NCBI GenBank assembly: GCA_963732385.1
Contig: CAVSZB010000007.1
Coordinates: 1,248,001 to 1,312,000, forward strand
Origin: an uncultured bacterium
Lineage (GTDB): Bacteria > Krumholzibacteriota > Krumholzibacteriia > LZORAL124-64-63
DNA: 64,000 bases
Direction: 5' to 3'
Shown: positions 1 through 51,404 of the stretch, piece after piece
How the letters are laid out: each line of letters opens with the position of its first letter
Position numbering within the stretch: the first letter of the stretch is position 1
Program-made: the position numbers and the translations under genes
Notes under the pieces: model-generated
Database searches by the model: none
What the model was told of the DNA's origin: nothing
The model's input: the letters and a program-made list of their open reading frames with translations, nothing else

Positions 1-38
1 CGGGCAGGACGCACATCAGTTGCTCGAGGAAAGCCATG
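1..38 (-). CDS. 5' end of a gene running off the window edge (MAFLEQLMCVLP...)
   Basis: ATG at 38 on the minus strand with upstream AGGATGG; only 12 codons visible; divergent from the cytochrome gene. Confidence 0.35.
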
Positions 39-228
39 TCGATCCATCCTTCACGCGCCCAAAAGCCAGAAGGTGAGAAACTTCGTCCCGCTTTGCATAT
101 CGGCGTCCCGGACCGTCGGTTTAGAATCCCGCCACCAAAACAAACAGTTTCTTGAATTCGAAGTCGGATCGTTTAACTTCCATCTCTGGCCCGCAGACTC
201 GCACGGCGTGCCGCCGGGAAGGCTGTGG

Positions 229-3015
229 ATGAAGAGCCCCGCACGTATCAGCATCCTCGTGGCCCTGGGCTTCGCCCTTGGCGTGGCAACGACCGCGCGC
301 GCCCAGTCCAACGCCGACTGTCTCGGTTGCCACGACGACCCCACGCTGTACTCCGTCCGCGACGGCCTCCGCGTCTCCCGCCACGTCGATGTCAAGGCGT
401 TCGACCGCTCGGCGCACGCCGGTGTGGAGTGCGTCTCGTGCCATGCGGATCTCTCCGGCAGCGACTTCCCGCACAAGGAGAAGGCCGATCCGGTCGATTG
501 CGGCGGCTGCCACGACGAGGTCGCCGCCCTGTACGTGCAGAGCCTGCACGGAAGCAAGGTCGCCGCGGGGGACAAACTGGCGCCGCGCTGCCGGGACTGC
601 CACGGCTCGCACGATATCCTGCCCCGCACCGACCCCGACTCGCGCGTGACCAAATTCAACATTCCCTTCATGTGCGGCTCCTGCCACAAGGAGGGGACGC
701 CGGTCTCGCGTTTCTACAATATCCCGCAGGACAGCATCCTGACGCACTACTCGGAAAGCATCCACGGCGAGGGGCTGTTCCAGAAGGGCCTCACGATCAC
801 CGCAGTCTGCTCGGATTGTCACACCGCCCATTTCGTCCTCCCGCACACCGACAACCGCTCCAGCATCGCGCGCGCGAACGTGGCGACCACCTGCCAGCAT
901 TGCCACGGCCGCATCGAGCAGGTGCACGTGAAAGTCATCCGGGGCGAATTGTGGGAAAAGGCGCCCAAACAGGTGCCGGTCTGCGTGGATTGCCACCAGC
1001 CGCACAAGGCGCGCCGCATCTTCTACGCCGAGGGGATCTCCGACCGCGATTGCCTCGCCTGCCATTCCCGGTCGGACCTCACCACCAGGCACGACGGCAA
1101 GACGGTTTCCCTGACGGTGTCGGGCGACGAACTGCACGACTCGATCCACCGCAACGTGCGGTGCGCGCAGTGCCACGCCGGCGCCACGCCCGGGCACAAG
1201 CGCCCGTGCGACACCGTGACCACGAAGGTGGACTGCTCGACGTGCCACGCCGAGCCGGTCAGGCAGTACCAGGCCGGCATCCATGGCCAGCTGGCCGCGC
1301 GGGGCGATGTCGATGCTCCCCACTGCACGACCTGCCACGGCACCCACGGCACGAAGGCGCACCTTGATCCGGCCTCTCCCGTCTTCACGCGGAACGTGCC
1401 CTCGCTATGCGCGCGCTGCCACGGCGAAGGCAATCCCGCTCAGGTGCGGTACAAGGGCGATCAGAAGGACATCGTCGCCCACTACCTGCAGAGCGTTCAC
1501 GGCAAGGGACTGACCGAGAGCGGCCTGGTCGTGACCGCCATGTGTGCCGACTGCCACACGGCGCATACCGAGTTGCCCGCGGCCGACCCGGCATCGACCG
1601 TCAATCCGGCGAACATCCCGCACACCTGCGCGAAGTGCCACACCGGCATCAGCGAGATTTTCGCGCGCAGCATCCACGCCAAAGGCCAGCCGAAAGACGG
1701 CAAGCCGCTGCCGGTCTGCAGCGACTGCCATTCCTCGCACGCGATCGCCCGCACGGACGCCGAAGGCTTCAAACTCGAGATCATCGGCCAGTGCGGGAAA
1801 TGCCATGAAGCGGTCACCGAATCGTACTTCCAGACCTATCACGGCAAGGTCGTCAAGCTGGGCTCCGCCAAGACGGCGAAGTGCAACGACTGCCATGGTT
1901 CACACGACATCCTGCCGCCCATCGACCCGGCTTCGCATCTGTCGAGGCAGAATGTGGTGGCCACCTGCGCACAGTGCCATCCGGGATCGCACCGCCGGTT
2001 CGCGGGCTACCTGACCCACGCCACGCATCATGATCGCGACAAATACCCCGCGCTCTACTGGACCTTCCGCTTCATGAGCACGCTGCTCGTGGGGACTTTC
2101 CTGTTCTTCGGAGTGCACACGCTGCTCTGGCTGCCGCGCTCGTTCCAGGCGATGAAACACGCCAAGGCGCTGCGCCAGCGCTCGGAGGGGCAGAAACAGA
2201 TCCGCCGCTTCCCGCGCCTCTCGCGCCAGTTGCACGTGCTCGTGGTGACGAGTTTCCTCGGCCTCGCTCTCACCGGCATGACCCTGAAGTTCTCGTACCT
2301 CGGCTGGGCGCAATGGCTGGCCCGGGTCCTGGGCGGGTTCGAGGGAGCCGGCACGATCCACCGCATCTGCGCGGTGATAACCTTCTTCTACTTCACCCGC
2401 CACATCATCGATCTGGTCGAACGCAAGCGCGTCAGCCGGGTCTCCTGGCGTGAATTCCTGACCGGCCCGGACTCCATGACACCGGGCGCTACCGATCTGA
2501 AGGAATTCGGACAGACGATGCGGTGGTTCGTCGGTCTCGGACCGCGGCCGCGGTACGGCCGCTGGACCTACTGGGAAAAGTTCGACTACTTCGCGGTGTT
2601 CTGGGGCGTGGCGATGATCGGCACCACCGGGTTGATGCTCTGGTTCCCGGAGTTTTTCACCCGCCTGCTGCCGGGCCGGTTCATCAATGTGGCGACGATC
2701 ATCCATTCGGACGAGGCGCTCCTCGCCACGGGCTTCATTTTCACCATCCATTTCTTCAACACCCATTTCCGTCCGGACAAATTCCCGATGGACACGGTCA
2801 TTTTCAGCGGACGCATCCCGCTGGAAGAGTTGAAGGAGGATCGGCCGCGGGAATACGCAAGGCTGGTCGAATCGGGCGAGCTGGAGCAGCAGCTCGTCGA
2901 TCCGCTCCCCTCCTATGTCCTGCGGGGGCTGAAGATCTTCGGCTGGTTTGCGCTTTCGCTCGGGATCGCGCTGATCGTCCTCATCATCTGGGCGGAAGTC
3001 TTCAGGTACCGCTGA
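229..3015 (+). CDS. Multiheme cytochrome c (19 CxxCH) fused to a C-terminal cytochrome b-type membrane domain (CbcL-like)
   Basis: Signal peptide MKSPARISILVALGFALG; 19 CxxCH motifs counted; C-terminal hydrophobic helices with His ligands and the RWTYWEKFDYFAVFWG / HSDEALLA motifs of FdnI/cyt b-like domains. Confidence 0.9.
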   Translation: MKSPARISILVALGFALGVATTARAQSNADCLGCHDDPTLYSVRDGLRVSRHVDVKAFDRSAHAGVECVSCHADLSGSDFPHKEKADPVDCGGCHDEVAALYVQSLHGSKVAAGDKLAPRCRDCHGSHDILPRTDPDSRVTKFNIPFMCGSCHKEGTPVSRFYNIPQDSILTHYSESIHGEGLFQKGLTITAVCSDCHTAHFVLPHTDNRSSIARANVATTCQHCHGRIEQVHVKVIRGELWEKAPKQVPVCVDCHQPHKARRIFYAEGISDRDCLACHSRSDLTTRHDGKTVSLTVSGDELHDSIHRNVRCAQCHAGATPGHKRPCDTVTTKVDCSTCHAEPVRQYQAGIHGQLAARGDVDAPHCTTCHGTHGTKAHLDPASPVFTRNVPSLCARCHGEGNPAQVRYKGDQKDIVAHYLQSVHGKGLTESGLVVTAMCADCHTAHTELPAADPASTVNPANIPHTCAKCHTGISEIFARSIHAKGQPKDGKPLPVCSDCHSSHAIARTDAEGFKLEIIGQCGKCHEAVTESYFQTYHGKVVKLGSAKTAKCNDCHGSHDILPPIDPASHLSRQNVVATCAQCHPGSHRRFAGYLTHATHHDRDKYPALYWTFRFMSTLLVGTFLFFGVHTLLWLPRSFQAMKHAKALRQRSEGQKQIRRFPRLSRQLHVLVVTSFLGLALTGMTLKFSYLGWAQWLARVLGGFEGAGTIHRICAVITFFYFTRHIIDLVERKRVSRVSWREFLTGPDSMTPGATDLKEFGQTMRWFVGLGPRPRYGRWTYWEKFDYFAVFWGVAMIGTTGLMLWFPEFFTRLLPGRFINVATIIHSDEALLATGFIFTIHFFNTHFRPDKFPMDTVIFSGRIPLEELKEDRPREYARLVESGELEQQLVDPLPSYVLRGLKIFGWFALSLGIALIVLIIWAEVFRYR

Positions 3016-3277
3016 GCCTCGCCTGATTGTCGCCAGGAAATCCTGCCCCCGGCTGCGGACAGTCGTGATACCAACTCCTACTTTCGCAATCTGTTATCGA
3101 CGTGGTATTTTCACGAAATTGTCCCGCCAGCTTGACTCCCGGGATTCGATTCCCCAAGGTTGCGATAGGATATTGATTCAGGACTTTCGCTGCCTTGGTT
3201 AACGTCGGAACCGACGCCCCCAGGCCAGGCGTCGGACCGCCGCGAGACAGCGAGCTACGTATGGCGAGGTGACAAGC

Positions 3278-4195
3278 ATGAGCATGGACCGTCGCGACTT
3301 CCTGAAGTTCGCAGCCGCAGGCTCGACCGCCCTCGCGATCGGCGGCAGTCTGACCGCCGAGGCCGACGCCTCCTCAACCGCCCTGGACTCGCCCCGGAAC
3401 GACGCCTTCGGCGTTCTGGTGGACACCACGTTCTGCGTGGGATGCCGCAAGTGCGAGTGGGGCTGCAACCAGGCCAACGAGTTGCCGAAAATCGACAGGG
3501 AGGTCTTCGAGGACAAGTCGATCCTGACGAGTCACCGTCGCCCGGACGTCGCAGCCTTTACGGTGGTCAACCAGGTGGCCGCGCCGCCCGAAACGGAGCA
3601 GCCGGTCTTCGTGAAGATCCAGTGCATGCACTGCAACCGCCCTGCCTGCGTTTCGGCCTGCATCGTCGGCGCGCTGCGCAAGCAGCCGGAGGGTCCGGTC
3701 ACCTACGACGCCGCGAAATGCATCGGGTGCCGCTACTGCATGGTGGCGTGTCCGTTCCAGATCCCCGGCTACGAATACACGCGCGCACTCCAGCCCCGCG
3801 TGATGAAGTGCGGCTTCTGCGCCGAACGCACCATGAAGGAGGGGCGCAAGCCCGGCTGCGTGGAGAATTGCCCCAACGAGGCGCTGACGTTCGGCCGCCG
3901 CGGGGAGCTGCGCGAACTGGCCCACCAGAAGATCTCCGCCTCCCCCTCCCGCTATCTCAATCACGTCTACGGGGAGTACGAAGCGGGCGGCACGAGTTGG
4001 ATGTACCTGGCCGGCATCGACTTCGTCCGCGCCGACCTGCCGACGCTGGGCAGCCACGCCATGCCCTCTCTGACGGAGAAGATCCAGCACGGCGTTTTCA
4101 AGAACTTCGTGCCGCCGCTGGCGCTCTACGGACTGCTGGGCCTCGTGATGGCGAGTCAGCGCAAGGACGACGGGGAGGGCGGAAACGATGAGTGA
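3278..4195 (+). CDS. Tat-exported 4Fe-4S protein, HybA/HmcB/NrfC family
   Basis: Twin-arginine motif DRRDFLK; four Cys clusters CVGCRKCEWGC, CMHCxxPACVSAC, CIGCRYCMVAC, CGFC..CVENC; C-terminal hydrophobic helix. Confidence 0.9.
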   Translation: MSMDRRDFLKFAAAGSTALAIGGSLTAEADASSTALDSPRNDAFGVLVDTTFCVGCRKCEWGCNQANELPKIDREVFEDKSILTSHRRPDVAAFTVVNQVAAPPETEQPVFVKIQCMHCNRPACVSACIVGALRKQPEGPVTYDAAKCIGCRYCMVACPFQIPGYEYTRALQPRVMKCGFCAERTMKEGRKPGCVENCPNEALTFGRRGELRELAHQKISASPSRYLNHVYGEYEAGGTSWMYLAGIDFVRADLPTLGSHAMPSLTEKIQHGVFKNFVPPLALYGLLGLVMASQRKDDGEGGNDE

Positions 4196-5447
4196 CCATG
4201 CATCCCCCGTGCGGGGCTCCTACCTGACGCGCGGCAGCACGGCCGTCCTGGCCGTGGCCGCCGTGGGCATCCTGATCTACCTGTCGCGAATGTTTCTTGG
4301 TCTCGAGAAAGTGACCAATCTGGACAACCAGTGGCCCTGGGGCATCTGGATCGCGGTCGATGTCGCCACCGGCGTCGCGCTGGCCGCGGGCGGCTTCACC
4401 TCCGCGGCTCTGGTCTACATCTTCGGCCACCAGCGGTACCATCCGCTGATCCGCCCGGCGCTGCTGACGGCCATGCTCGGCTACACGTTCGTCGTCATCG
4501 GGCTGCTGGCCGATCTCGGGCGCTGGTACAACGTCTGGCACCCGATGCTGCCCTCGATGTGGCAGGGCAACTCGGTGCTGTTCGAGGTCGGCATCTGCGT
4601 GATGATCTACCTGTGCGTGCTCTACATCGAGTTCGTGCCGATCGTCGCGGAACGCTTCAAGGGACGCGTTGCGCTGCGCGGAGCGCCCCAGCGCCTGAAC
4701 CGGACGATCGACAAGCTCCTGCACGCGGCCGATGCCACGCTTTCGCGCTTCATGTTCATCTTCATCATCGCCGGCGTCGTCCTGTCGTGCCTGCACCAGT
4801 CCTCGCTGGGCACCCTGATGTTGATCGCGCCGACAAAAATGAGCCCGCTCTGGTACACGCCGGTCATGCCGGCCCTCTTCCTTTTGTCGGCCATCGCGGT
4901 CGGCTTCCCGATGATCATCTTCGAATCTCTCCTGGCGTCGCGCAGTTTTCGGCTCCCTCCGGAGATGAACCTGCTCGCCGGTCTGGGGCGGATCGTCACG
5001 TTCACGCTGGGGATCTACGCCGTCGCAAAGATCGTCGACCTGACGGTGCGCGAAGCGTGGCCCTGGGCCCTCGCCGGCGGCACCCAGGCCGTGATGTTCT
5101 GGATCGAGATGCTGGGGGGCGTGCTGCTGCCACTGATCCTCTTCGCCCTGCCGCGCGTGCGGCGTGATCCCCGCGGCCTCTTCGCCGCCGCCACCCTGAC
5201 CGTGCTCGGCGTCGCCCTCAACCGGATCAACGTCTTTTTGGTGGCGTATCGCCCGCCGTTCGCCGGGCCGACCTACTTCCCGTCCGTCTTTGAGATTCTG
5301 CTCACGGCGGGGCTGATCGCCACCCTGGTGCTGGTCTACCGGGCGATCGTGATGATCTTCCCTGTCATCGCCGCGCCTCACGGCGCCGGCGCATCGATTC
5401 ACGTCGGGGAATCGGGCCGGCCGCACAGCCAGGCCCAGGCAAGGTGA
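4188..5447 (+). CDS. NrfD/PsrC-family integral membrane protein, HybB/HmcC-like
   Basis: NLDNQWPWGIWIAVDV, DLGRWYN and LHQSSLGTL motifs; many TM helices; overlaps the upstream Fe-S gene. Confidence 0.9.
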   Translation: MSDHASPVRGSYLTRGSTAVLAVAAVGILIYLSRMFLGLEKVTNLDNQWPWGIWIAVDVATGVALAAGGFTSAALVYIFGHQRYHPLIRPALLTAMLGYTFVVIGLLADLGRWYNVWHPMLPSMWQGNSVLFEVGICVMIYLCVLYIEFVPIVAERFKGRVALRGAPQRLNRTIDKLLHAADATLSRFMFIFIIAGVVLSCLHQSSLGTLMLIAPTKMSPLWYTPVMPALFLLSAIAVGFPMIIFESLLASRSFRLPPEMNLLAGLGRIVTFTLGIYAVAKIVDLTVREAWPWALAGGTQAVMFWIEMLGGVLLPLILFALPRVRRDPRGLFAAATLTVLGVALNRINVFLVAYRPPFAGPTYFPSVFEILLTAGLIATLVLVYRAIVMIFPVIAAPHGAGASIHVGESGRPHSQAQAR

Positions 5448-6625
5448 TCAAGATGAATATCCGTCCGATCACGCGGGCCGTCGCCCTGGCTTCCGCGCTG
5501 TTGAGCCTCTCCTTTGCGCCCGGCGCGCAGGCCCAGACCAAGCGCACCGAAGCGGACGAGCGCGCCCACATGCAGATGATGAACCTCGACTGCCTCGAGT
5601 GCCACACCTGCAAGGACCCGACGAGCGCCACGGCCTGCCTCAAGGCCTGCCCGCGCCTGACGGTCGCCCAGAACACCGGCCGTCATGTGGTGGCGGAAGC
5701 CCCCGAGGGAATGGTGCTCGACTCGCTGGCCGACCAGTACCAGGGGGTCCGGTTCGGCCACAAGCTGCATGCCGGCATGTCGGAGATGAACGCCGGCTGC
5801 TCGACCTGCCACCACTTCTGTCCGCCCGGCAAGATCCCGCCCTGCGGAAGTTGCCATAGCGTCGAGGCCAGCACCCAGAATCTGCGACAGCCCAGCCTCA
5901 AAGGCGCCTACCACCGCCAGTGCATGAACTGCCATCGGGAATGGAGCCACGAGACCGACTGCAACATCTGCCACCTGCCGTCCGGCAAATTCGCGCAGAC
6001 CGGGGACAGGACCGATCCGACCGACATCATGGGCAAGTCCCACCCGGTGATCGCCGCGCCGGAAAAGCGGAGCTATCACACGCCGTACGAGAAGGGCCCG
6101 GTGGTGACGTTCTACCACCAGGAACACATCGACCTGTTCGGCCTGCGCTGCGTGGACTGCCATCAGAAGGAGAACTGCAGCTACTGCCACGACATGCAGA
6201 AGCCGGCCACCCTGAAGAAGAGCATGGAGGAAGTGCACGCGATCTGCTCGAGTTGCCACCAGACGGCCAAGTGCTCGAAATGCCACGATACGGTCGAGCG
6301 GCCCGCCTTCTCGCACGCCGCCACCGGCTGGTCGATCGGCCGCTTCCACTCCCGGCTGGAGTGCCGCGGCTGCCACCCGACCGGCAAGCGGGTCTCGAAG
6401 GTGAATCGCGAGTGCACCTCGTGCCACGGCGGCTGGAACCAGGAGAACTTCCGCCACGCCGTCACCGGCCTGCAGCTCGACGACACGCACGGCGCGGCCG
6501 ACTGCGCGGACTGCCACGCCAACCGCCGCTACGCCGAGAAGCCGACCTGCTCCGGCTGCCACGACGACAATCGCGACTTCAAATCGGTCCCGCCCGGCAA
6601 GTACGTGAGGGTCGGGGGGCGGTAG
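5444..6625 (+). CDS. Periplasmic multiheme cytochrome c (13 CxxCH), cytochrome c3/HmcA-like
   Basis: Signal peptide; 13 CxxCH; c3-type VxFxHxxH and LKGAYHRQCxxCH motifs. Confidence 0.88.
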   Translation: MIKMNIRPITRAVALASALLSLSFAPGAQAQTKRTEADERAHMQMMNLDCLECHTCKDPTSATACLKACPRLTVAQNTGRHVVAEAPEGMVLDSLADQYQGVRFGHKLHAGMSEMNAGCSTCHHFCPPGKIPPCGSCHSVEASTQNLRQPSLKGAYHRQCMNCHREWSHETDCNICHLPSGKFAQTGDRTDPTDIMGKSHPVIAAPEKRSYHTPYEKGPVVTFYHQEHIDLFGLRCVDCHQKENCSYCHDMQKPATLKKSMEEVHAICSSCHQTAKCSKCHDTVERPAFSHAATGWSIGRFHSRLECRGCHPTGKRVSKVNRECTSCHGGWNQENFRHAVTGLQLDDTHGAADCADCHANRRYAEKPTCSGCHDDNRDFKSVPPGKYVRVGGR

Positions 6626-6672
6626 GCGCCCCGCCCCGCCGCCAGGGCGGCCGCAACGCTGAGCGAAGCAGT

Positions 6673-6702
6673 GACGACGGCCCGGGAAACCGGGCCGTCG
6701 TC
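6673..6702. terminator. Hairpin between convergent genes
   Basis: Perfect 13-bp stem GACGACGGCCCGG / CCGGGCCGTCGTC with GAAA loop. Confidence 0.65.
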
Positions 6703-6719
6703 GTTCCCGTCGTTCCGGC

Positions 6720-7421
6720 TCACCGATCCGCGCCCGGATCCTTCACGACGTTCGCCGGTTCCAGTCGGCCCAGCTGCCGCAGATTGCGGATCACTCGACG
6801 CATCAGCATGCCGAGCATGATCGCCGCGAGACAGACGCCGGCGAGGTCGAATACCGTCGCGCCCACGCCCAGCACCTCGAACGGGATCGGCCCGATTGTC
6901 ACGGCGGCCGTGTTGAGCGCGATGAGCAACAGCCGCGTCTCGGTCGGCCCGACCACTCCGTATCCGAAGCGGAAGTCGTTGAAGACCTGGCTCTCCAGAT
7001 AGACGTTGATGGAGAGGATCAGATAGGCCACGACCACGGCCAGGCCGACGGCCAGCAGCATGTAGGGCGACAACCCGAGCCCCAGTCCGATCGCCAGCGT
7101 GGAGAAGGCGTCCACGAGGTGATCGAGATAGAACCCGTAGCGCGGCCGCTGGATCCGCCGCACCCGCGCGATCGTCCCGTCGAGACTGTCACCGAACCAG
7201 TTGATGACGAAGCCCAGGCTGGCGACCCACAACCATGCCGGCGACTGGTTCGACATCAGGTAGGCGAACGTGACGAGACACGACCCCCCGATCCCGATCA
7301 GCGTCAGATGATCGGGCAGCAGACCCCGCGGCAGCCGCGGCGCCAGCCAGGCGAGCAGCCGCTTCTCCCCCTCGCTGAAGACGAAGGTGGCGCGGCGGCG
7401 GGGCTCGGCGGCAGAAGTCAT
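6720..7421 (-). CDS. CDP-alcohol phosphatidyltransferase family protein (YnjF-like)
   Basis: Signature DSLDGTIAR...YGFYLDHLVD; hydrophobic. Confidence 0.88.
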   Translation of the reverse strand: MTSAAEPRRRATFVFSEGEKRLLAWLAPRLPRGLLPDHLTLIGIGGSCLVTFAYLMSNQSPAWLWVASLGFVINWFGDSLDGTIARVRRIQRPRYGFYLDHLVDAFSTLAIGLGLGLSPYMLLAVGLAVVVAYLILSINVYLESQVFNDFRFGYGVVGPTETRLLLIALNTAAVTIGPIPFEVLGVGATVFDLAGVCLAAIMLGMLMRRVIRNLRQLGRLEPANVVKDPGADR

Positions 7422-7597
7422 GATCCAGCCTCCGGGGTGAGTGGCGCGGCGGCGGGCGGGACGACCCGCCGCGGACACTGCATCCTAACCGCAAGGAGCC
7501 GGGAATGTCCCCCGTTCCGATGGCCGGCATAAGCCAGGGGCCGCCCAGCGGTGGGACGGCCCCGGGTCTTCCGCCTGCCGGCGCGGCGCGTGTCCGG

Positions 7598-9499
7598 TCA
7601 GTGTTTTTCGTCCTCGATCTTCCGGCCTGTCAGTTCCTCCCACTCCAGCGGGTGCTCGCTCTTGAGCTGGCGCTCCGGCATCATCCCGTTGATCCAGCTC
7701 GGATTCATCGGGTAGACCTTCGGGTTGAACACGGTCGCGTACATGTGCCAGATCAGGATCGCCAGGAAGGCCAGCCACGCCTCGTAGTAATGGATCACCA
7801 GCAGGACATCGAGCAGCCCCTTGGGGAAGAACTTCACGGCGTAGTTGTCGAACCACAGGAACAGTCCGGTAATCCCCATCACCACGGTGCCCCAGACGAG
7901 GGCCCAGTATTCGGCCTTCTCCACATAGGAGAACCGCCCGAAATGCGGATGTTGGGCGCTTTTGCCCAGGTTGTACTTCATCATCTGGAAGAACTGGATC
8001 ACGTCCAGCTTGCCCGGGAGCATGTCGCGCACGAAGCAGCGGCCCCGCTTCGTGACCAGGAAGATCAGGTGCCACAGCCCGCCCAGCAACAGCAGCACGC
8101 CCGCGGACCGGTGGATGATGCCGCGCGTCGTGTAACCGCCCTCGCGGCCGAAAACGAGCGTGCTCCACCAGGCGTCGTAGTAGCGAAGCGCGAAGCCGGT
8201 CACCACCAGTACCGTGAAGGCGAGCGCCAGCACGGTGTGCTGCACCACTTCGTCCGCGTCCATGCGCCGGACCTGCTTCTCCCGCATCACCGCGATGATC
8301 TGGCGGAACAGGTCGATCAGCCAGTGTACGATCATGCCGCCGATCACAACCACTATCAGGATGACATAGATGATCTTCACGAGGTGCGGCCAGCCCCGAT
8401 CATGTCCGGTGGCCGTGGAGTGGATCGAGGTGGCGGCGAGCTTGGCCGTGATGCCGGGGTGGCACTGCCCGCAGGTGTGCTGCAGGTTGGCCGGCGCGAT
8501 CGAGGAGGTCGCGTCGGATGACGGCAGGATGCGGTGCGCGCCGTGGCAGGAACCGCAGTTGGCCACCAATTTGTCGCCCGCCCGGCTCTTGAGACCATGG
8601 TACGAATCGCGGAACGACTGCAGACGTCCGCTCGGCAGGTCGTACTTCTCGTTCAGGAACGCCGACTCGTGGCACGGCGTGCAGGTGGCCTCGGCGACGC
8701 GATATGGGCTGACCGGGGAGCGTGGGTCGCTCACCGGCAGGATGCCGTGCTCGCCGTGGCAGTGGGTGCAGGTCGGCGCGTCGACCTCGCCGCGCGCGAC
8801 CAGCTGGCCGTGGATCCCCTCCATGTAGTCCTGGGCGATGGCGGTGTGGCACTTGCCGCAGGTCTTCGGGATGTTGAAGAAGTTGATGGTCGAGCTGATG
8901 TCCCCGGGGGGCAGGATGTGGTGCGCGTTGCCGCCAGTGGAGTGGCAATCATTGCAGGAGGCTGCCGTGTGGATGCCCCCCGACATGGCGCGCCCGTGCA
9001 CGCTCTTCGAGTAGACGCGGATCGGGTGCTTGAACTTGATATTGCGGCCGCTGATGAGCGTCGAATCCTCATGGCACTTGCCGCAGGTCTCCGGCAGATT
9101 CACCGGGCTCACCGCCGAGTGGTTGTCGCTGCCGGCGAGGATCTGGTGCGAGCCGTGGCAATCGCCGCAGTTCGGCACCGAGGTCGACTGCCCGACCATC
9201 GCGCGCCCGTGCTGCCTGTAGGTATCGACCTCTTCCGCGTGGCAGCCGGCGCAGTTCGCCGGAGACAGTTTCTCCGGGTGCGGCAACTCGGTGATGTCGG
9301 AGTGACAGTCCAGACACGAAAGCCCTTCGTGGAGGCTCCCTTTCAGGGTCTCGGCGCTGACCTCCGCCGGCTGTCCGCCCGAGCCGGTGTGGCAGGTGGC
9401 GCAGTCGGTTTCGGTGATCTGCGCCCGCAACGGCGCAACCCCGCCAAAGCTAATGAATAGAAGGGCCATCAGCACCGTCGAGGCCGTCGTCCACTTCAT
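7598..9499 (-). CDS. Multiheme cytochrome c (11 CxxCH) fused to a cytochrome b domain (CbcL-like)
   Basis: RBS GAGGTGG; signal peptide; 11 CxxCH; C-terminal TM domain with FSYVEKAEYWALVWG and HYYEAWLA. Confidence 0.9.
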   Translation of the reverse strand: MKWTTASTVLMALLFISFGGVAPLRAQITETDCATCHTGSGGQPAEVSAETLKGSLHEGLSCLDCHSDITELPHPEKLSPANCAGCHAEEVDTYRQHGRAMVGQSTSVPNCGDCHGSHQILAGSDNHSAVSPVNLPETCGKCHEDSTLISGRNIKFKHPIRVYSKSVHGRAMSGGIHTAASCNDCHSTGGNAHHILPPGDISSTINFFNIPKTCGKCHTAIAQDYMEGIHGQLVARGEVDAPTCTHCHGEHGILPVSDPRSPVSPYRVAEATCTPCHESAFLNEKYDLPSGRLQSFRDSYHGLKSRAGDKLVANCGSCHGAHRILPSSDATSSIAPANLQHTCGQCHPGITAKLAATSIHSTATGHDRGWPHLVKIIYVILIVVVIGGMIVHWLIDLFRQIIAVMREKQVRRMDADEVVQHTVLALAFTVLVVTGFALRYYDAWWSTLVFGREGGYTTRGIIHRSAGVLLLLGGLWHLIFLVTKRGRCFVRDMLPGKLDVIQFFQMMKYNLGKSAQHPHFGRFSYVEKAEYWALVWGTVVMGITGLFLWFDNYAVKFFPKGLLDVLLVIHYYEAWLAFLAILIWHMYATVFNPKVYPMNPSWINGMMPERQLKSEHPLEWEELTGRKIEDEKH

Positions 9500-9715
9500 C
9501 AAATCCACCTCGCTTCGAATACCCCTGTACGCACTGTAGATTCCCCGTAATGAAAGGGCTTGTTCCGGAGAGAAGCAAGCTCCAGTTTAGGCCCCGCGAA
9601 ATTCTATTAAGATAATAATTGTAGCCATTTACCGGGTATTGATCGGGCCTGTTTTCAGCGCGGCCGGCGCTCCTCTTCCGGACGGAATTTCCTGCCTGCA
9701 GATGTGGGAGGGGGT

Positions 9716-13283: not shown

Positions 13284-13700
13284 ATGCGTGCATTGCGCTT
13301 CCTCAACATCATCGGCGTTCTCGCCGCCCTCTTCATGGCCGCGGGCACGGCCGTCGCCGGCAAGACCGCGGCGCAGGCCCAACCGCAGAGCACCTGCCCC
13401 GTGACCGGCAAACCGATCGACAAGGGGGTCTCGACGACCTACGGCGGACAGAAGGTCTACTTCTGCTGTCCGAAGTGCATCGCGACCTTCGACAAGGATC
13501 CCGAGACTTATCTGGCGAAGCTCGGCAAGCAGGGCCAGATCGTCGAGTCGCAGCAGAAGTTCTGCCCGGTGTCGGGTGAGCCCATCGATGCGAAGGTCTC
13601 GGTCGACTACAAGGGACGCCACGTCTTCTTCTGCTGCGCCATGTGCATCAAGGATTTCCAGGCTGACCCGGCCAAGTACCTCCCGAGAATGGCGGCCTGA
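13284..13700 (+). CDS. Exported tandem YHS/TRASH metal-binding protein
   Basis: Signal peptide; two CPVxG...Y.G....FCCxxC...F..DP..YL repeats. Confidence 0.88.
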   Translation: MRALRFLNIIGVLAALFMAAGTAVAGKTAAQAQPQSTCPVTGKPIDKGVSTTYGGQKVYFCCPKCIATFDKDPETYLAKLGKQGQIVESQQKFCPVSGEPIDAKVSVDYKGRHVFFCCAMCIKDFQADPAKYLPRMAA

Positions 13701-47971: not shown

Positions 47972-49231
47972 ATGCTTGAGCGCAGCAAGGAAACGCGTTT
48001 CCCCACCCTGGTAGAACGTTTTGTAAAGTACGCGAAAATCCACACGACCTCGCAGGAAGGTGCCGAGAGCTACCCCTCCACCGCCCGTCAGCTCGATCTG
48101 GCCCGCGAGCTCGTTCAGGAATTGCGCGATCTCGGGCTGAAGAACGCCGACCTGGACCAGCACGGTTACGTGACGGCCATCCTGCCGGCGAACTGCCCGG
48201 AAGGCCGGAAGGTCCCCGCCATCGCCTTCATCGCCCACATGGACACCTACCCCGAGGTGTCGGGCGAGAACGTCAAGCCGACGTTCCACGCGAACTACGC
48301 CGGCGGCGACATCAGGCTGCCGTCCGGCTATGTAATCAAGGCGGCCGACAACCCCTATCTCTCCGAGTGCGTCGGCGAGACGATCATCACCTCGGACGGC
48401 ACCACGCTGCTGGGCGCCGACGACAAGGCCGGCGTGGCCGAGATCATGGAGGCGTTCACCCGCCTGATCGAGAACCCCGATTTCAAGCACGGCCCGGTGA
48501 AGGTGGCCTTCACACCGGACGAGGAGGTCGGCGCCGGCGTGAAGCACTTCGATGTGGCGGCCTTCGGCGCCACCGTCGCCTACACGATGGACGGCGGTCC
48601 GCGCGGCGAGGTCGAGGACGAGACGTTCAGCGCCGACACCGCGATCGTGACTTTCGTCGGCCGCGACATCCACCCCGGCTACGCCAAGGGGAAGATGGTC
48701 CCGTCGATCAAGGTGGCCGCCGATTTCGTGGCCAGCCTCCCCCGCGACCTCGCCCCCGAAACGACGGCGGGCAAGCAGGGCTACGTCCACCCGATCAGCA
48801 TCGAGGGGAACGCTTCGGCCACGAAGGTCAGCCTGCTCGTGCGCGATTTCGACGCCGGGCAGCTCAAGCCGAAGGAGGAGCTCATCCTGAAGCTCGCGCA
48901 GAAAGCGGCGGCCGGGTGGCCCGGCGCCGAGATCAAGTTCGAGGTCAAGGAATACTACCGGAACATGAAGTACGACCTCCAGAAGGAGCCACGCGCCGTG
49001 GCCTACGCCATGGAGGGGATCCGGCGGGCCGGCATGGAACCGAAACTCGGATCGATCCGCGGCGGCACTGACGGCGCGGTCCTCTCCGCGAAGGGCCTGC
49101 CCACCCCGAACCTGTTCACCGGTGAACAGAGCTTTCACAGCTTCGGCGAGTGGATCTGCGAGAAGGACATGGAGCTGGCGACCCGGACCATCCTGCACAC
49201 GATCGCCGTCTGGCTGGAAAAGAGCGCCTGA
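47972..49231 (+). CDS. pepT: Peptidase T (M20B tripeptidase)
   Basis: FIAHMDT, TSDGTTLLGADDKAG, FTPDEEVG, HPGYAKGKM, IRGGTDGA, GLPTPNLFTG. Confidence 0.95.
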   Translation: MLERSKETRFPTLVERFVKYAKIHTTSQEGAESYPSTARQLDLARELVQELRDLGLKNADLDQHGYVTAILPANCPEGRKVPAIAFIAHMDTYPEVSGENVKPTFHANYAGGDIRLPSGYVIKAADNPYLSECVGETIITSDGTTLLGADDKAGVAEIMEAFTRLIENPDFKHGPVKVAFTPDEEVGAGVKHFDVAAFGATVAYTMDGGPRGEVEDETFSADTAIVTFVGRDIHPGYAKGKMVPSIKVAADFVASLPRDLAPETTAGKQGYVHPISIEGNASATKVSLLVRDFDAGQLKPKEELILKLAQKAAAGWPGAEIKFEVKEYYRNMKYDLQKEPRAVAYAMEGIRRAGMEPKLGSIRGGTDGAVLSAKGLPTPNLFTGEQSFHSFGEWICEKDMELATRTILHTIAVWLEKSA

Positions 49232-49263: not shown

Positions 49264-49303
49264 ACGGGCCGTGGAGGTCGAAAAACTTCCACGGCCCGTT
49301 TCT
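49264..49303 (+). terminator. Probable terminator of pepT
   Basis: ACGGGCCGTGGAGGT / ACTTCCACGGCCCGT stem (one G:U pair) followed by TTCT. Confidence 0.55.
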
Positions 49304-49357
49304 GTGCCTGCCCCTGTCTCACGGTCTCAAATTCATCGCCCAGTGTGAAAAATAGGC

Positions 49358-49386
49358 TTGCAACCAGATTGCGCCAATCTTATACT
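49358..49386 (+). promoter_or_regulatory. Sigma70 promoter with a palindrome in the spacer
   Basis: TTGCAA-N17-TATACT; spacer holds AGATTG-CGC-CAATCT (49366-49380). Confidence 0.65.
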
Positions 49387-49465
49387 AAGAACCTAGGATT
49401 TTCGGCAGACAGAAACACCAGACCCAGGCGCGGCAGCGACGCCTCGCGTCGAAGGGACATGACGA

Positions 49466-50014
49466 ATGCGAAACTTCTTCAAAGGGACCCTGCTGATCCT
49501 CGCCATCTCGGTGCTGACCGCCGGAATTCTGACGGCTGGCGGACCGGAATGTGCCAAGGACAAGGCCGCGGCCACCGCCGCGGATATGGGCGGCTGCCCC
49601 GGCCACGCCGTGCAGGCGTCGACCGACGGGAAGGCCGGCTGTCCTGCTCACGCTTCTGTTGCCGACGGCAAGAGCTGCGATCCCGCGAAGTGCCCCCAGG
49701 CCGCGGCCATGAAGGCCGATGGCAAGGGTTGCGACCCGGCCGCCTGCGCCGCCATGGCCAAGAGCGGCAAGTGCGACCCCGCCGCCTGCGCGGCCACGGC
49801 CAAGAGCGGCAAGTGCGACCCCGCCGCCTGCGCCGCCACGGCCAAGAGCGGCAAGTGCGACCCCGCCGCCTGCGCGGCCAAGGCCACGGTGAAGACCGAA
49901 GGCAAGACTTGCGATCCGAAGAATTGCGATCCGTCCAAGTGCCCGATGCATGGCTCGGCGAAGGGCGCTGCTGCCCCCGAGGCCAAGTCGTCGGACGACA
50001 AAGGCACCTCCTGA
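49466..50014 (+). CDS. Exported Cys-rich CDPxxC-repeat protein (metallothionein-like, unknown family)
   Basis: Signal peptide; 16 Cys; 7 CDPxxC units; 3 CPxH motifs; own promoter and terminator. Confidence 0.75.
   Translation: MRNFFKGTLLILAISVLTAGILTAGGPECAKDKAAATAADMGGCPGHAVQASTDGKAGCPAHASVADGKSCDPAKCPQAAAMKADGKGCDPAACAAMAKSGKCDPAACAATAKSGKCDPAACAATAKSGKCDPAACAAKATVKTEGKTCDPKNCDPSKCPMHGSAKGAAAPEAKSSDDKGTS
49730..49879 (+). repeat. 42-bp tandem repeat, about 3.5 copies, encoding CDPAACAATAKSGK
   Basis: Units start at 49730, 49772, 49814 and 49856. Confidence 0.85.
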
Positions 50015-50065
50015 CGATCCCCGGCCAAGGAATGGGCGCTGAATCCTCGTCCCGGCGTCCTTCCG

Positions 50066-50100
50066 ATGACCCCCTCCCCTCGGGGAGGGGGTCATTTTTT
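50066..50100 (+). terminator. Rho-independent terminator
   Basis: ATGACCCCCTCCC-CTCG-GGGAGGGGGTCAT followed by a T-run. Confidence 0.85.
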
Positions 50101-50134
50101 GCGATATCGCGGGCACAGGCAGGAATTCGATCTG

Positions 50135-50173
50135 TTGACAGTGCGACATCTTTATAGTATCGTTATGATATCA
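50135..50173 (+). promoter_or_regulatory. Putative sigma70 promoter and TGATATCA palindrome of the SPFH-Arc operon
   Basis: TTGACA-N17-TATCGT; TGATATCA at 50166-50173. Confidence 0.5.
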
Positions 50174-50262
50174 ACACGGAATACATGCCCGCTCCCCCTG
50201 TCGGGGCCGGGACCACCGGCGCCGCGCTCACCGCGCCGCCAGAACCGAAGGAGGCAGAAGCG

Positions 50263-51129
50263 ATGCACGAGGAGAGGCTGCGCAAGATCGCGTCGGGGTG
50301 GCCCCATCTGTTCCTGAACATCCTGTTATTCGCGGCGGCCGTGGCATCTTACCTGTCGATCATCCGGACCAGCATGCCAATCAACGCCCTCTGGGGGACA
50401 CTGCTGCTGTTCGCGGCGCTCCTGCACTCCGCCGGCTTCTTCATCGTGAATCCGAACGAGGCAGCGGTCCTGCTGCTGTTCGGCGCCTACAAGGGGACCG
50501 TGAAGCACAACGGCTTCCGCTGGGCCAACCCCTTCTACCGGAAAATCAAGATCTCGCTGCGGATGCGGAACCTCGTCAGCGAGAAAATCAAGGTGAACGA
50601 TCTGATCGGCAATCCGATCGAGATCGCCGCGGTGATCGTCTGGCAGGTGCACAACACCACCGAGGCGCTCTTCGACGTGGATGACTACCACAACTACATC
50701 ACCACGCAGAGCGAGGCGGCGATCCGCCACCTGGCCAGCTCGTACCCGTACGACGGCTCCGAAACCGAACTGACGCTGCGCGGCGCGACCGACCAGATCA
50801 ACACGCACCTCCAGCGGGAACTCCAGGAGCGGCTCGGCCGGGCCGGCGTGACGGTGACCGAGGCGCGCCTGAGTCACCTCGCCTACGCCTCGGAAATCGC
50901 CGGCGCGATGCTGCAGCGGCAGCAGGCGACCGCGATCGTCGCCGCCCGGCAGAAGATCGTCGAGGGGGCGGTCGGCATGGTGGAGATGGCGCTGTCGGAG
51001 TTGAGCCGCAAGGCGATCGTCCAGCTCGACGACGAGCGCAAGGCCGCCATGGTGAGCAACCTGCTCGTCGTGCTGTGCAGCGAGCGGGCCGCGGCGCCGG
51101 TCGTGAACACCGGGACACTCTACTCTTAG
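50263..51129 (+). CDS. SPFH (band 7) domain protein
   Basis: [64 protein letters not shown]. Confidence 0.9.
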
Positions 51130-51197
51130 CGGACCCGGACGCGCGGGCGGGTTGGCAACCCGCCCGCGCCAAGGGCCGCGGGCACGCGAGGGAGCGC

Positions 51198-51404
51198 ATG
51201 ACCGTGGAGAAGAAAGCGTTCCTGCTCCGCCTGCCGGCGGACCTCCATGACGACCTGCGCCGCTGGGCCGACGCGGAGTTGCGCTCCCTCAACGCTCAGA
51301 TCGAATTCGTGCTGCGCCGGGCGGCGAGGGAGAGGCGGCGCGATGCCGATACGCAGCGTGCCTCCGGGTCTGCCGCCCCAGCCGACGACCTGCCCGACAA
51401 CTGA
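51198..51404 (+). CDS. Arc-family ribbon-helix-helix DNA-binding protein
   Basis: KKAFLLRLP..WADAELRSLNAQIEFVL; follows the SPFH gene. Confidence 0.85.
   Translation: MTVEKKAFLLRLPADLHDDLRRWADAELRSLNAQIEFVLRRAARERRRDADTQRASGSAAPADDLPDN

Follow-up and report, generated by a model that had tools for sequence, protein, structure and literature searches.

The locus considered here raises the question of what a small, apparently exported bacterial protein does with a six-residue cysteine unit that it carries seven times over. The gene lies in the window, by which we mean the whole 64,000-nucleotide stretch of DNA that was analysed, and it encodes a 182-residue protein, designated P0001, that the initial annotation described as metallothionein-like. 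The counts given there (16 Cys, seven CDPxxC units, three CPxH motifs and no CxxCH) were all reproduced: the CDPxxC units begin at residues 71, 89, 103, 117, 131, 149 and 154, the CPxH motifs at residues 44, 59 and 159, and P0001 lacks the CxxCH motif by which a c-type cytochrome is recognized. The mature part was also said to be free of aromatic residues, and indeed no F, W or Y is found after residue 24; from residue 25 onward L, I and R are missing as well. These 158 residues include 42 Ala, 21 Lys, 17 Gly, 14 Asp and 13 Pro, and P0001 has three His and four Met. When the mature part was shuffled 20,000 times, no shuffle contained more than one CDPxxC versus seven in the real sequence. A six-frame survey of the 3.8-Mb host genome (ORFs of at least 40 residues) placed seven of its 14 CDPxxC strings within P0001 and uncovered no second ORF with two.

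Although several frames are open across the gene, codons 1–87 gave dN/dS values of 0.18 and 0.17 against two relatives with changes falling mostly at third positions, which identifies the P0001 frame as the coding one. Antisense and alternative frames were rejected because this synonymous pattern contradicts them. The gene is real and under purifying selection. Its neighbours in the window are pepT (47972–49231) upstream and a gene for an SPFH protein on the other side. Segment 49255–49310, behind pepT, has a predicted folding energy of −35.8 kcal/mol (z −6.5), and with hairpins closing both pepT and the P0001 gene (z −5.2 for the latter), a stand-alone unit is likely. As for the earlier description of a monocistronic gene with its own promoter and terminator, a promoter candidate retained in relatives and hairpins on both sides were found, and we infer monocistronic expression from this arrangement. 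Contigs assembled from three RNA runs of one study, which belong to close relatives, span the gene at about 90% identity. The same contigs also cover 27–30 of the 30 bins of a 20-kb neighbourhood, so DNA carry-over may account for this coverage. Coordinates of the features are collected in the table. On the far side of the terminator candidate, a strong promoter-like site with the look of an inverted repeat (50135–50175) was noted ahead of the SPFH gene (50185–51404), which is followed by a ribbon-helix-helix gene; the two could be an autoregulated pair.

Table. Predicted features of the P0001 gene and its flanks (window coordinates), with two leader-like ORFs from loci of distant relatives
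Feature	Position	Strand	Details
Hairpin with short T-rich tail, likely pepT terminator	49266..49305	+	
Sigma-70-type promoter candidate	49358..49386	+	TTGCAA-17 nt-TATACT; kept in G001, G016, L190
Ribosome-binding site candidate	49451..49457	+	8 nt 5' of ATG; similar purine run in G001, G016
Gene for CDPxxC repeat protein P0001	49466..50014	+	182-aa ORF; dN/dS 0.17–0.18; orthologues behind pepT
Predicted Sec signal peptide	49466..49537	+	Residues 1–24; hydropathy and by-eye reading
N-terminal low-complexity part	49550..49651	+	C29, C44, C59 (15 residues apart); two CPxH
Repeat core	49676..49951	+	Residues 71–162; seven CDPxxC units; ends with CPMH
42-bp tandem array	49730..49886	+	3.7 copies, 94% matches; 14-residue unit
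Intrinsic terminator candidate	50065..50101	+	14-bp stem, 4-nt loop, U run; −31 kcal/mol, z −5.2
Cys-rich leader-like ORFs	L005:1016-1420, L006:882-1352	+	xPPP end 38–41 residues past last Cys

By-eye reading and hydropathy bear out the signal peptide proposed earlier insofar as the N-terminus is signal-like: it has a basic start and a hydrophobic stretch at residues 7–23 (peak 11-residue hydropathy 2.8), and cleavage is likely to follow Ala24. Neither a twin-Arg motif nor a lipobox was seen by eye in this segment. The 42-bp repeat, beside which a 15-bp duplication lies at 49904–49933, had been called expanding; the 3.7-copy array is there, but for expansion nothing was found beyond relatives that differ in unit number. 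Unit arrangements in G001 and L190, for instance, are not those of P0001. No Pfam and no NCBIfam family matched P0001 at E values up to 1, and an Atlas search returned unnamed clusters only (best 0.87). Weak matches to a TAZ1 zinc finger in a PDB sequence search (E 0.007–0.17) were attributed to composition and set aside. The composition of P0001 fits disorder, and its structural model, built from a 9-row alignment, has a mean pLDDT of 48.6 and a pTM of 0.24 and shows every Asp-Pro followed by a short helix. Because hydrophobic residues are lacking, a stable core would be unlikely to form in the absence of metal or disulfides.

Profile and pattern searches for relatives, which the initial annotation had recommended, place P0001 in a real, unannotated family found in several bacterial phyla. 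A word-indexed protein search gave eight matches, and a profile run against 1.84 billion representatives found 90; nine long profile matches were dropped as CHU_C/SprB or Ig-repeat proteins without C[DN]PxxC. Pattern scanning of species genomes returned at least 120 loci, of which 23 passed a crude signal-peptide filter and 17 were kept, and a second scan contributed 37 among the 119 matches listed, most rows of both scans being chance occurrences or other proteins. The 17 kept loci include, among the matches listed, Bacteroidales, Saprospiraceae, Chitinophagaceae, Phycisphaerae, Holophagales, KSB1 and Krumholzibacteriia, the last of which contributes a protein closely homologous to others from the window's own family, so that the host probably belongs to this class. 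At the 50% cluster level, 74 stand-alone relatives carrying one or more C[DN]PxxC were pooled from Bacteroidota, Krumholzibacteriia, Planctomycetota, KSB1 and Acidobacteriota, a count that excludes fusions, a pair of distant variants and four rows whose starts were doubtful. Apart from fused domains, no Pfam or NCBIfam family was matched in 92 relatives, so the proposal of a new family held. A search among longer proteins found nothing in 7994 candidates, a weak negative since fusions surfaced by other routes, and a word-based search of partial literature coverage found no publications on a CDPxxC repeat family. The similarity across phyla (E 1e-7 to 7e-4, in low-complexity sequence) could be partly convergent. 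Within the phylum of the window, the family profile matches 8 of 208 genomes. The gene is found behind pepT in G001, G016, G027, G438, G441 and L190, with unit numbers varying among the first five. A lipobox-like Cys in some relatives (P0059, P0066) supports location in the envelope. Exported proteins with another type of repeat, CDPI[DE]C, were encountered in Dyella and another Pseudomonadota record (L084:4869-5639 and L071:4917-5207, both on the minus strand).

The relatives also show which part of the protein is conserved. CPxH had been singled out as notable, but just 17 of the 74 relatives have one, 30 have no His whatsoever, and the CPxH motifs in the N-terminal part of P0001 are not kept as such in orthologues. 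It was therefore rejected as a functional motif, and the conserved element is instead the unit C-D-P-A-[KTNA]-C following Lys/Gly. Between 1 and 10 such units occur per protein, confirming the variation in repeat number that the annotation had suggested looking for; Cys makes up a median of 12% (range 7–16%), aromatic residues number 16 in 7230, and the spacings CxC, CC and CxxC are found in 0, 23 and 22 of the 74, respectively.

The metallothionein label did not survive sequence tests of profile, size, Cys density and motifs. P0001 does resemble SmtA/BmtA, PmtA and MymT in being Cys-rich, in favouring Lys over Arg (21 to 0), in having few aromatics (no F, W or Y) and in its poorly predicted fold. 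However, metallothioneins are described as about 60 residues long with 16% Cys in CxC, CxxC and CC motifs (PMC13578184), whereas the mature part of P0001 has 158 residues and 10% Cys, arranged only as CxxxxC, with every Cys spacing at least 5. According to PMC11237414, PmtA has no signal peptide, while one is predicted for P0001. The same source nevertheless reports PmtA on the surface of Pseudomonas aeruginosa, which qualifies the premise that bacterial metallothioneins are cytoplasmic. That premise also left out exported proteins that are known: the Cys-rich copper stores Csp1 and Csp2 and the sponges SilE and PcoE.

The redox setting of the host bears on whether the cysteines of P0001 are thiols or disulfides. 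No DsbA, DsbB or VKOR was found in the host genome (96% complete), where positive controls were matched, and a DsbD/CcdA-type domain (DsbD_TM) is present. Among 338 crudely predicted exported host proteins, 102 have an even, nonzero number of Cys and 157 an odd number, so the even-Cys bias described as a sign of disulfide formation (PMC2823432) is not seen. Taken together, the missing enzymes and the lack of bias make free thiols plausible. These proteins average 0.74% Cys, making P0001 about 14-fold richer. DsbB and VKOR were likewise not detected above cut-off in any of five Bacteroidota carriers of the family. The genomes behind all of these absences are incomplete, and oxidation may proceed by other routes. 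The window also has a multiheme cytochrome cluster at 1–9508, comprising a c3/c7-type gene with paired CXXCH motifs (73–3015), an NrfD gene (4188–5447), a class III cytochrome gene (5444–6625) and, on the minus strand, a gene for a multiheme protein with cytochrome b561 (7598–9508). Elsewhere in the host genome, a CxxC-rich, lipoprotein-like ORF was noted at G000:C1:144226-144615.

Relatives in which the repeat is joined to other domains hint at the kind of process it may serve. The 14-residue unit of the P0001 type follows an exported HMA domain in P0003–P0005, L166 and L191; shorter units are fused to YHS (L254), to Metal_resist/LTXXQ domains (L050, L178) and to a rhodanese (P0095); and units are also joined to a DinB-methyltransferase (P0086). 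In L050 and L211 the family gene lies behind genes for an ECF sigma factor and a Metal_resist protein. Thioredoxin-like or TlpA neighbours (L020, L055, L161, L174, L207) are as common as metal genes, and a C_GCAxxG_C_C gene adjoins the family gene at L081. Pumps of the CopA, CusA and CzcA types were absent from the neighbouring ORFs scanned (62/76 and 40/87). For the exported sponge or redox buffer originally envisaged, then, the context favours envelope thiol chemistry, as the HMA, YHS and ZraP/Spy-like fusions, the Cys-bearing sensor kinase described below and the failure to find disulfide-forming enzymes in the host all point that way, but it offers no efflux pump as a regular neighbour. 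Within the window's own family, P0013 and P0014 are distant relatives with a 14-mer repeat (single-genome E about 1e-4, missed by the profile). Each lies 50–67 nt downstream of a Cys-rich ORF whose end reads xPPP, and a hairpin is predicted to cover the ribosome-binding site of the next gene. This layout is that of the CutF/CruR copper leaders as far as these are described in PMC9973294 and PMC9426467; the ORFs have no Pfam match, and their likeness to CutF/CruR is one of layout. Arsenic was considered as a signal on account of ArsP-type permeases (L027, L207), an ArsR (L185) and a hint from P0086, and was rejected as all NCBIfam scores were below cut-off. Two exported-looking proteins of the host were noted in passing. 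One, encoded in the window (13284–13700, plus strand), has 138 residues, 8 Cys and two YHS-like halves, its NCBIfam YHS score being weak and below cut-off; the other (G000:C3:210260-210658, L354) is an exported HMA protein whose short, Cys-rich tail resembles the CxxCP motif at the N-terminus of family members from Bacteroidales.

The most elaborate context was found in Bacteroidota. There the family gene is divergent from a sensor kinase gene in 5 of the 13 genome loci that had flanks and in 5 of 22 metagenome family loci examined, both among the matches listed, and an OmpR-type regulator, closest to RprY (243 bits, below the family cut-off of 370), follows the kinase wherever the contig extends that far. 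The periplasmic sensor has a three-Cys consensus, C-x5-C-x8-C. Its model (pLDDT 83.5) gave Cache/PAS-type matches with Z up to 6.6, too weak for a family name; no match was obtained in a PDB sequence search, and an Atlas search returned unnamed clusters only (best 0.91). Starting instead from the kinases, as a guard against circularity, we examined the 76 best-scoring loci for a profile made from kinases beside the family, 73 of them with 500 bp upstream. Among these best-scoring loci, a small secreted Cys-rich ORF was divergent from 22 of 29 kinases with at least three sensor Cys and from 6 of 44 with fewer, one of the six being spurious. C[DN]PxxC occurs in 6 of the 28 partners, the others being rich in Cys and Lys with different spacings, and 26 of 27 Cys-rich partners belong to no Pfam family; none is a Dsb protein. 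A tree built from 63 catalytic domains puts most partners in one kinase clade (18 of 25 rows). Sensor Cys and partner did not show significant co-evolution, the independent pairs being too few; this comparison omitted 10 of 73 rows. RprX-like kinases whose sensor has one or two Cys were also seen divergent from genes for a DUF1573 protein, carrying a CGC motif, or an FKBP isomerase (L144, L147, L152, L157, L350, L326), a wider set of Bacteroidota modules pairing a kinase with a secreted partner.

A TAA-N7-TTAA[C/T] box, a pattern picked after the repeats had been seen, precedes 19 of 24 Bacteroidota-type genes, including some without an adjacent kinase (shuffles: mean 1.1, maximum 6). It also precedes partners of other kinases, Cys-poor ones included, and a triple box in G063 is followed by an LTXXQ gene. 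Genome-wide, the box was not enriched in five genomes (22 matches versus 46 for a reversed-pattern control). The DsbR box of P. aeruginosa has the same spacing, and the divergent kinase there is reported to sense copper through Cys (10.1101/2020.08.17.255257). As far as that system is described, the Bacteroidota relatives share with DsbRS-dsbDEG a Cys-bearing periplasmic sensor, a divergent target and a TAA-N7-TTAA box between the two; they differ in that DsbRS targets Dsb enzymes rather than a small Cys-rich peptide, that DsbS has one sensor Cys instead of three, and that the Bacteroidota regulator is nearest RprY. In the phylum of the window, no partner kinase was found in 208 genomes, the host genome yielded catalytic-domain matches only, and the box is absent from all seven promoters inspected. 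The kinase and box context thus concerns the Bacteroidota relatives, and the strongest context is not the window copy's own.

The reading that we prefer is that P0001 is exported and, as a disordered thiolate sponge, takes up soft metals much as SilE and PcoE do, but using cysteine, and we put its probability at about one half. The chain would cross the inner membrane by Sec and be cut near Ala24. With no hydrophobic core, it would consist of short helical turns capped by Asp-Pro, with two Cys flanking each, as the low-confidence model suggests. The cysteines would remain largely thiols because the host seems to lack oxidative folding enzymes and to possess a DsbD/CcdA-type reductant channel. 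Pairs of Cys could then fold around metal ions, such as Cu(I), Ag, Zn, Cd or Hg, none of which is singled out, and capacity would consequently scale with repeat number. In Bacteroidota, the divergent two-component system would probably induce the gene, its sensor reading the same thiol-reactive signal, while the window copy appears to be an orphan with a plain sigma-70-type promoter. What leads us to a sponge is the convergence of the metal-domain fusions, the Cys sensor with its DsbR-like box, the CutF-like leaders and the thiol-friendly host. Counted against it are the Cys density of 10% and the CxxxxC spacing, looser than that of metallothioneins, together with the lack of a pump neighbour in the ORFs scanned and the identity of the window neighbours, pepT and the SPFH gene.

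SilE and PcoE are the best match for this proposed way of working, being, in the description of PMC5008109, small, exported, expressed from their own promoter under two-component control and unstructured without metal. They differ in their ligands, which are described as His and Met with ten His each, compared with the 16 Cys, three His and four Met of P0001, and they have no sequence match to it. They are also reported to sit in pco/sil efflux clusters, which the CDPxxC family genes do not in the loci scanned. Csp1 and Csp2 are likewise exported and have many Cys, with thiolate binding of Cu(I) without disulfides described as a feature of Csp proteins (PMC5171941); however, they are reported to be rigid four-helix bundles exported by Tat, whereas P0001 has no twin-Arg motif, hydrophobic core or Pfam match. 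Judged by sequence, P0001 falls outside the SmtA/BmtA metallothioneins, SilE/PcoE, the Csp proteins and the LTXXQ proteins.

The exported sponges known so far rely on His and Met as in SilE and PcoE, or on a rigid bundle exported by Tat as in Csp1/2, and signal peptides are missing from metallothioneins. A Sec-exported, unfolded Cys sponge would fill this gap as the exported counterpart of metallothionein, and would show how bacteria without DsbA and DsbB make use of a thiol-friendly periplasm. The CDPxxC family and its three-Cys kinase module are new here. In Bacteroidota the three-Cys kinase, the box and the target form a testable pair and a lead to the signal of the poorly understood RprXY family, and the short modular unit could be useful for metal capture if binding proves positive. 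A broader and distinctly more speculative proposal is that the sponge belongs to an envelope defence of FCB/PVC bacteria, in which a portable, Cys-only CDPxxC unit with capacity set by the number of repeats is Sec-exported and has been grafted onto HMA, YHS, ZraP-like, rhodanese and RnfG proteins; the Bacteroidota module would add a new three-Cys kinase sensing the same metal, and the window gene would be a stand-alone copy.

Most of the evidence for a metal sponge is common to its main rival, a sacrificial redox buffer in the envelope whose Cys would absorb oxygen, peroxide, hypochlorite and reactive sulfur and be re-reduced through DsbD/CcdA and thioredoxin-like proteins, metals being incidental. 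The host looks anaerobic, its sole heme-copper oxidase family match being a quinol-dependent nitric oxide reductase (G000:C8:293465-295738, L351), and it has many multiheme cytochromes. A Cys sensor suits oxidants as well as metals, RprY has been linked to oxidative stress in Porphyromonas gingivalis (PMC3646045), and the thioredoxin-like and TlpA neighbours, the C_GCAxxG_C_C gene and the rhodanese links fit a redox role. We nevertheless consider a buffer rather unlikely, since the fusions to HMA, YHS and Metal_resist domains recur, genes for peroxiredoxin or Msr do not constantly accompany the family in the scanned loci, and a non-catalytic protein would be a costly antioxidant. If this or the structural alternative below is true, what remains is a new unannotated family.

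Some small exported proteins are encoded divergent from their own two-component system, zraP next to zraSR being an example. The layout in Bacteroidota recalls CpxP, Spy and ZraP, and in particular cpxP-cpxRA as described in PMC6737893, and the family protein could accordingly be an accessory output of a two-component or ECF system that acts like a holdase or damps the kinase, its Cys being disulfide staples or a regulatory metal site. LTXXQ/Metal_resist domains of the CpxP/Spy/ZraP type are fused or adjacent to the repeat in L050, L178 and L211, one such gene follows the triple box in G063, and paralogous kinases have DUF1573 and FKBP isomerase as other secreted partners. P0001 itself, however, has neither the LTXXQ helical hairpin nor an LTXXQ/Metal_resist match, almost no hydrophobic surface for clients is available, and the family shows no even-Cys bias (43 of 74 members even, 31 odd; p 0.2). 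Kinase damping is excluded as a role of the window copy because the partner kinase was not found in 208 genomes of its phylum. On balance this alternative is unlikely.

Less probable still is a structural or surface peptide, such as a spacer, matrix or sheath component, that is cross-linked by disulfides and has no metal or redox job. The signal peptide, the low complexity, the variable repeat number and the even 16 Cys of P0001 would suit such a peptide, as would the linker-like tails of similar units on RnfG and a Prevotella membrane protein. It would require disulfides, yet disulfide-forming enzymes were not found in the host, nor above cut-off in five of five Bacteroidota carriers; moreover, the Cys count is odd in 31 of 74 relatives, and Cys and Asp-Pro are both strictly retained. 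A precursor of secreted RiPP-like or toxin-like peptides cut from the repeats, suggested by the signal peptide, the repeated cores and the marginal score of one kinase partner (L304) on Pfam Conotoxin (25.3 bits versus a cut-off of 25.1), is highly improbable given that the units overlap without constant cleavage sites, that scanned neighbours show no recurring modifying enzyme, dedicated protease or exporter, and that the Conotoxin score was seen in 1 of 27 partners and is consistent with composition alone.

Cys-rich tails were also recorded on two kinds of larger protein. A Prevotella membrane protein (L032, L046), which resembles a succinate dehydrogenase cytochrome b subunit but has no Pfam match at 1e-5, has CKCDPC units in its C-terminal tail. 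In gut bacteria, RnfG (FMN_bind) carries a Cys-rich tail with one CDPxxC (L179:4946-5737, minus strand), and about 45 similar rows were present among the matches listed.
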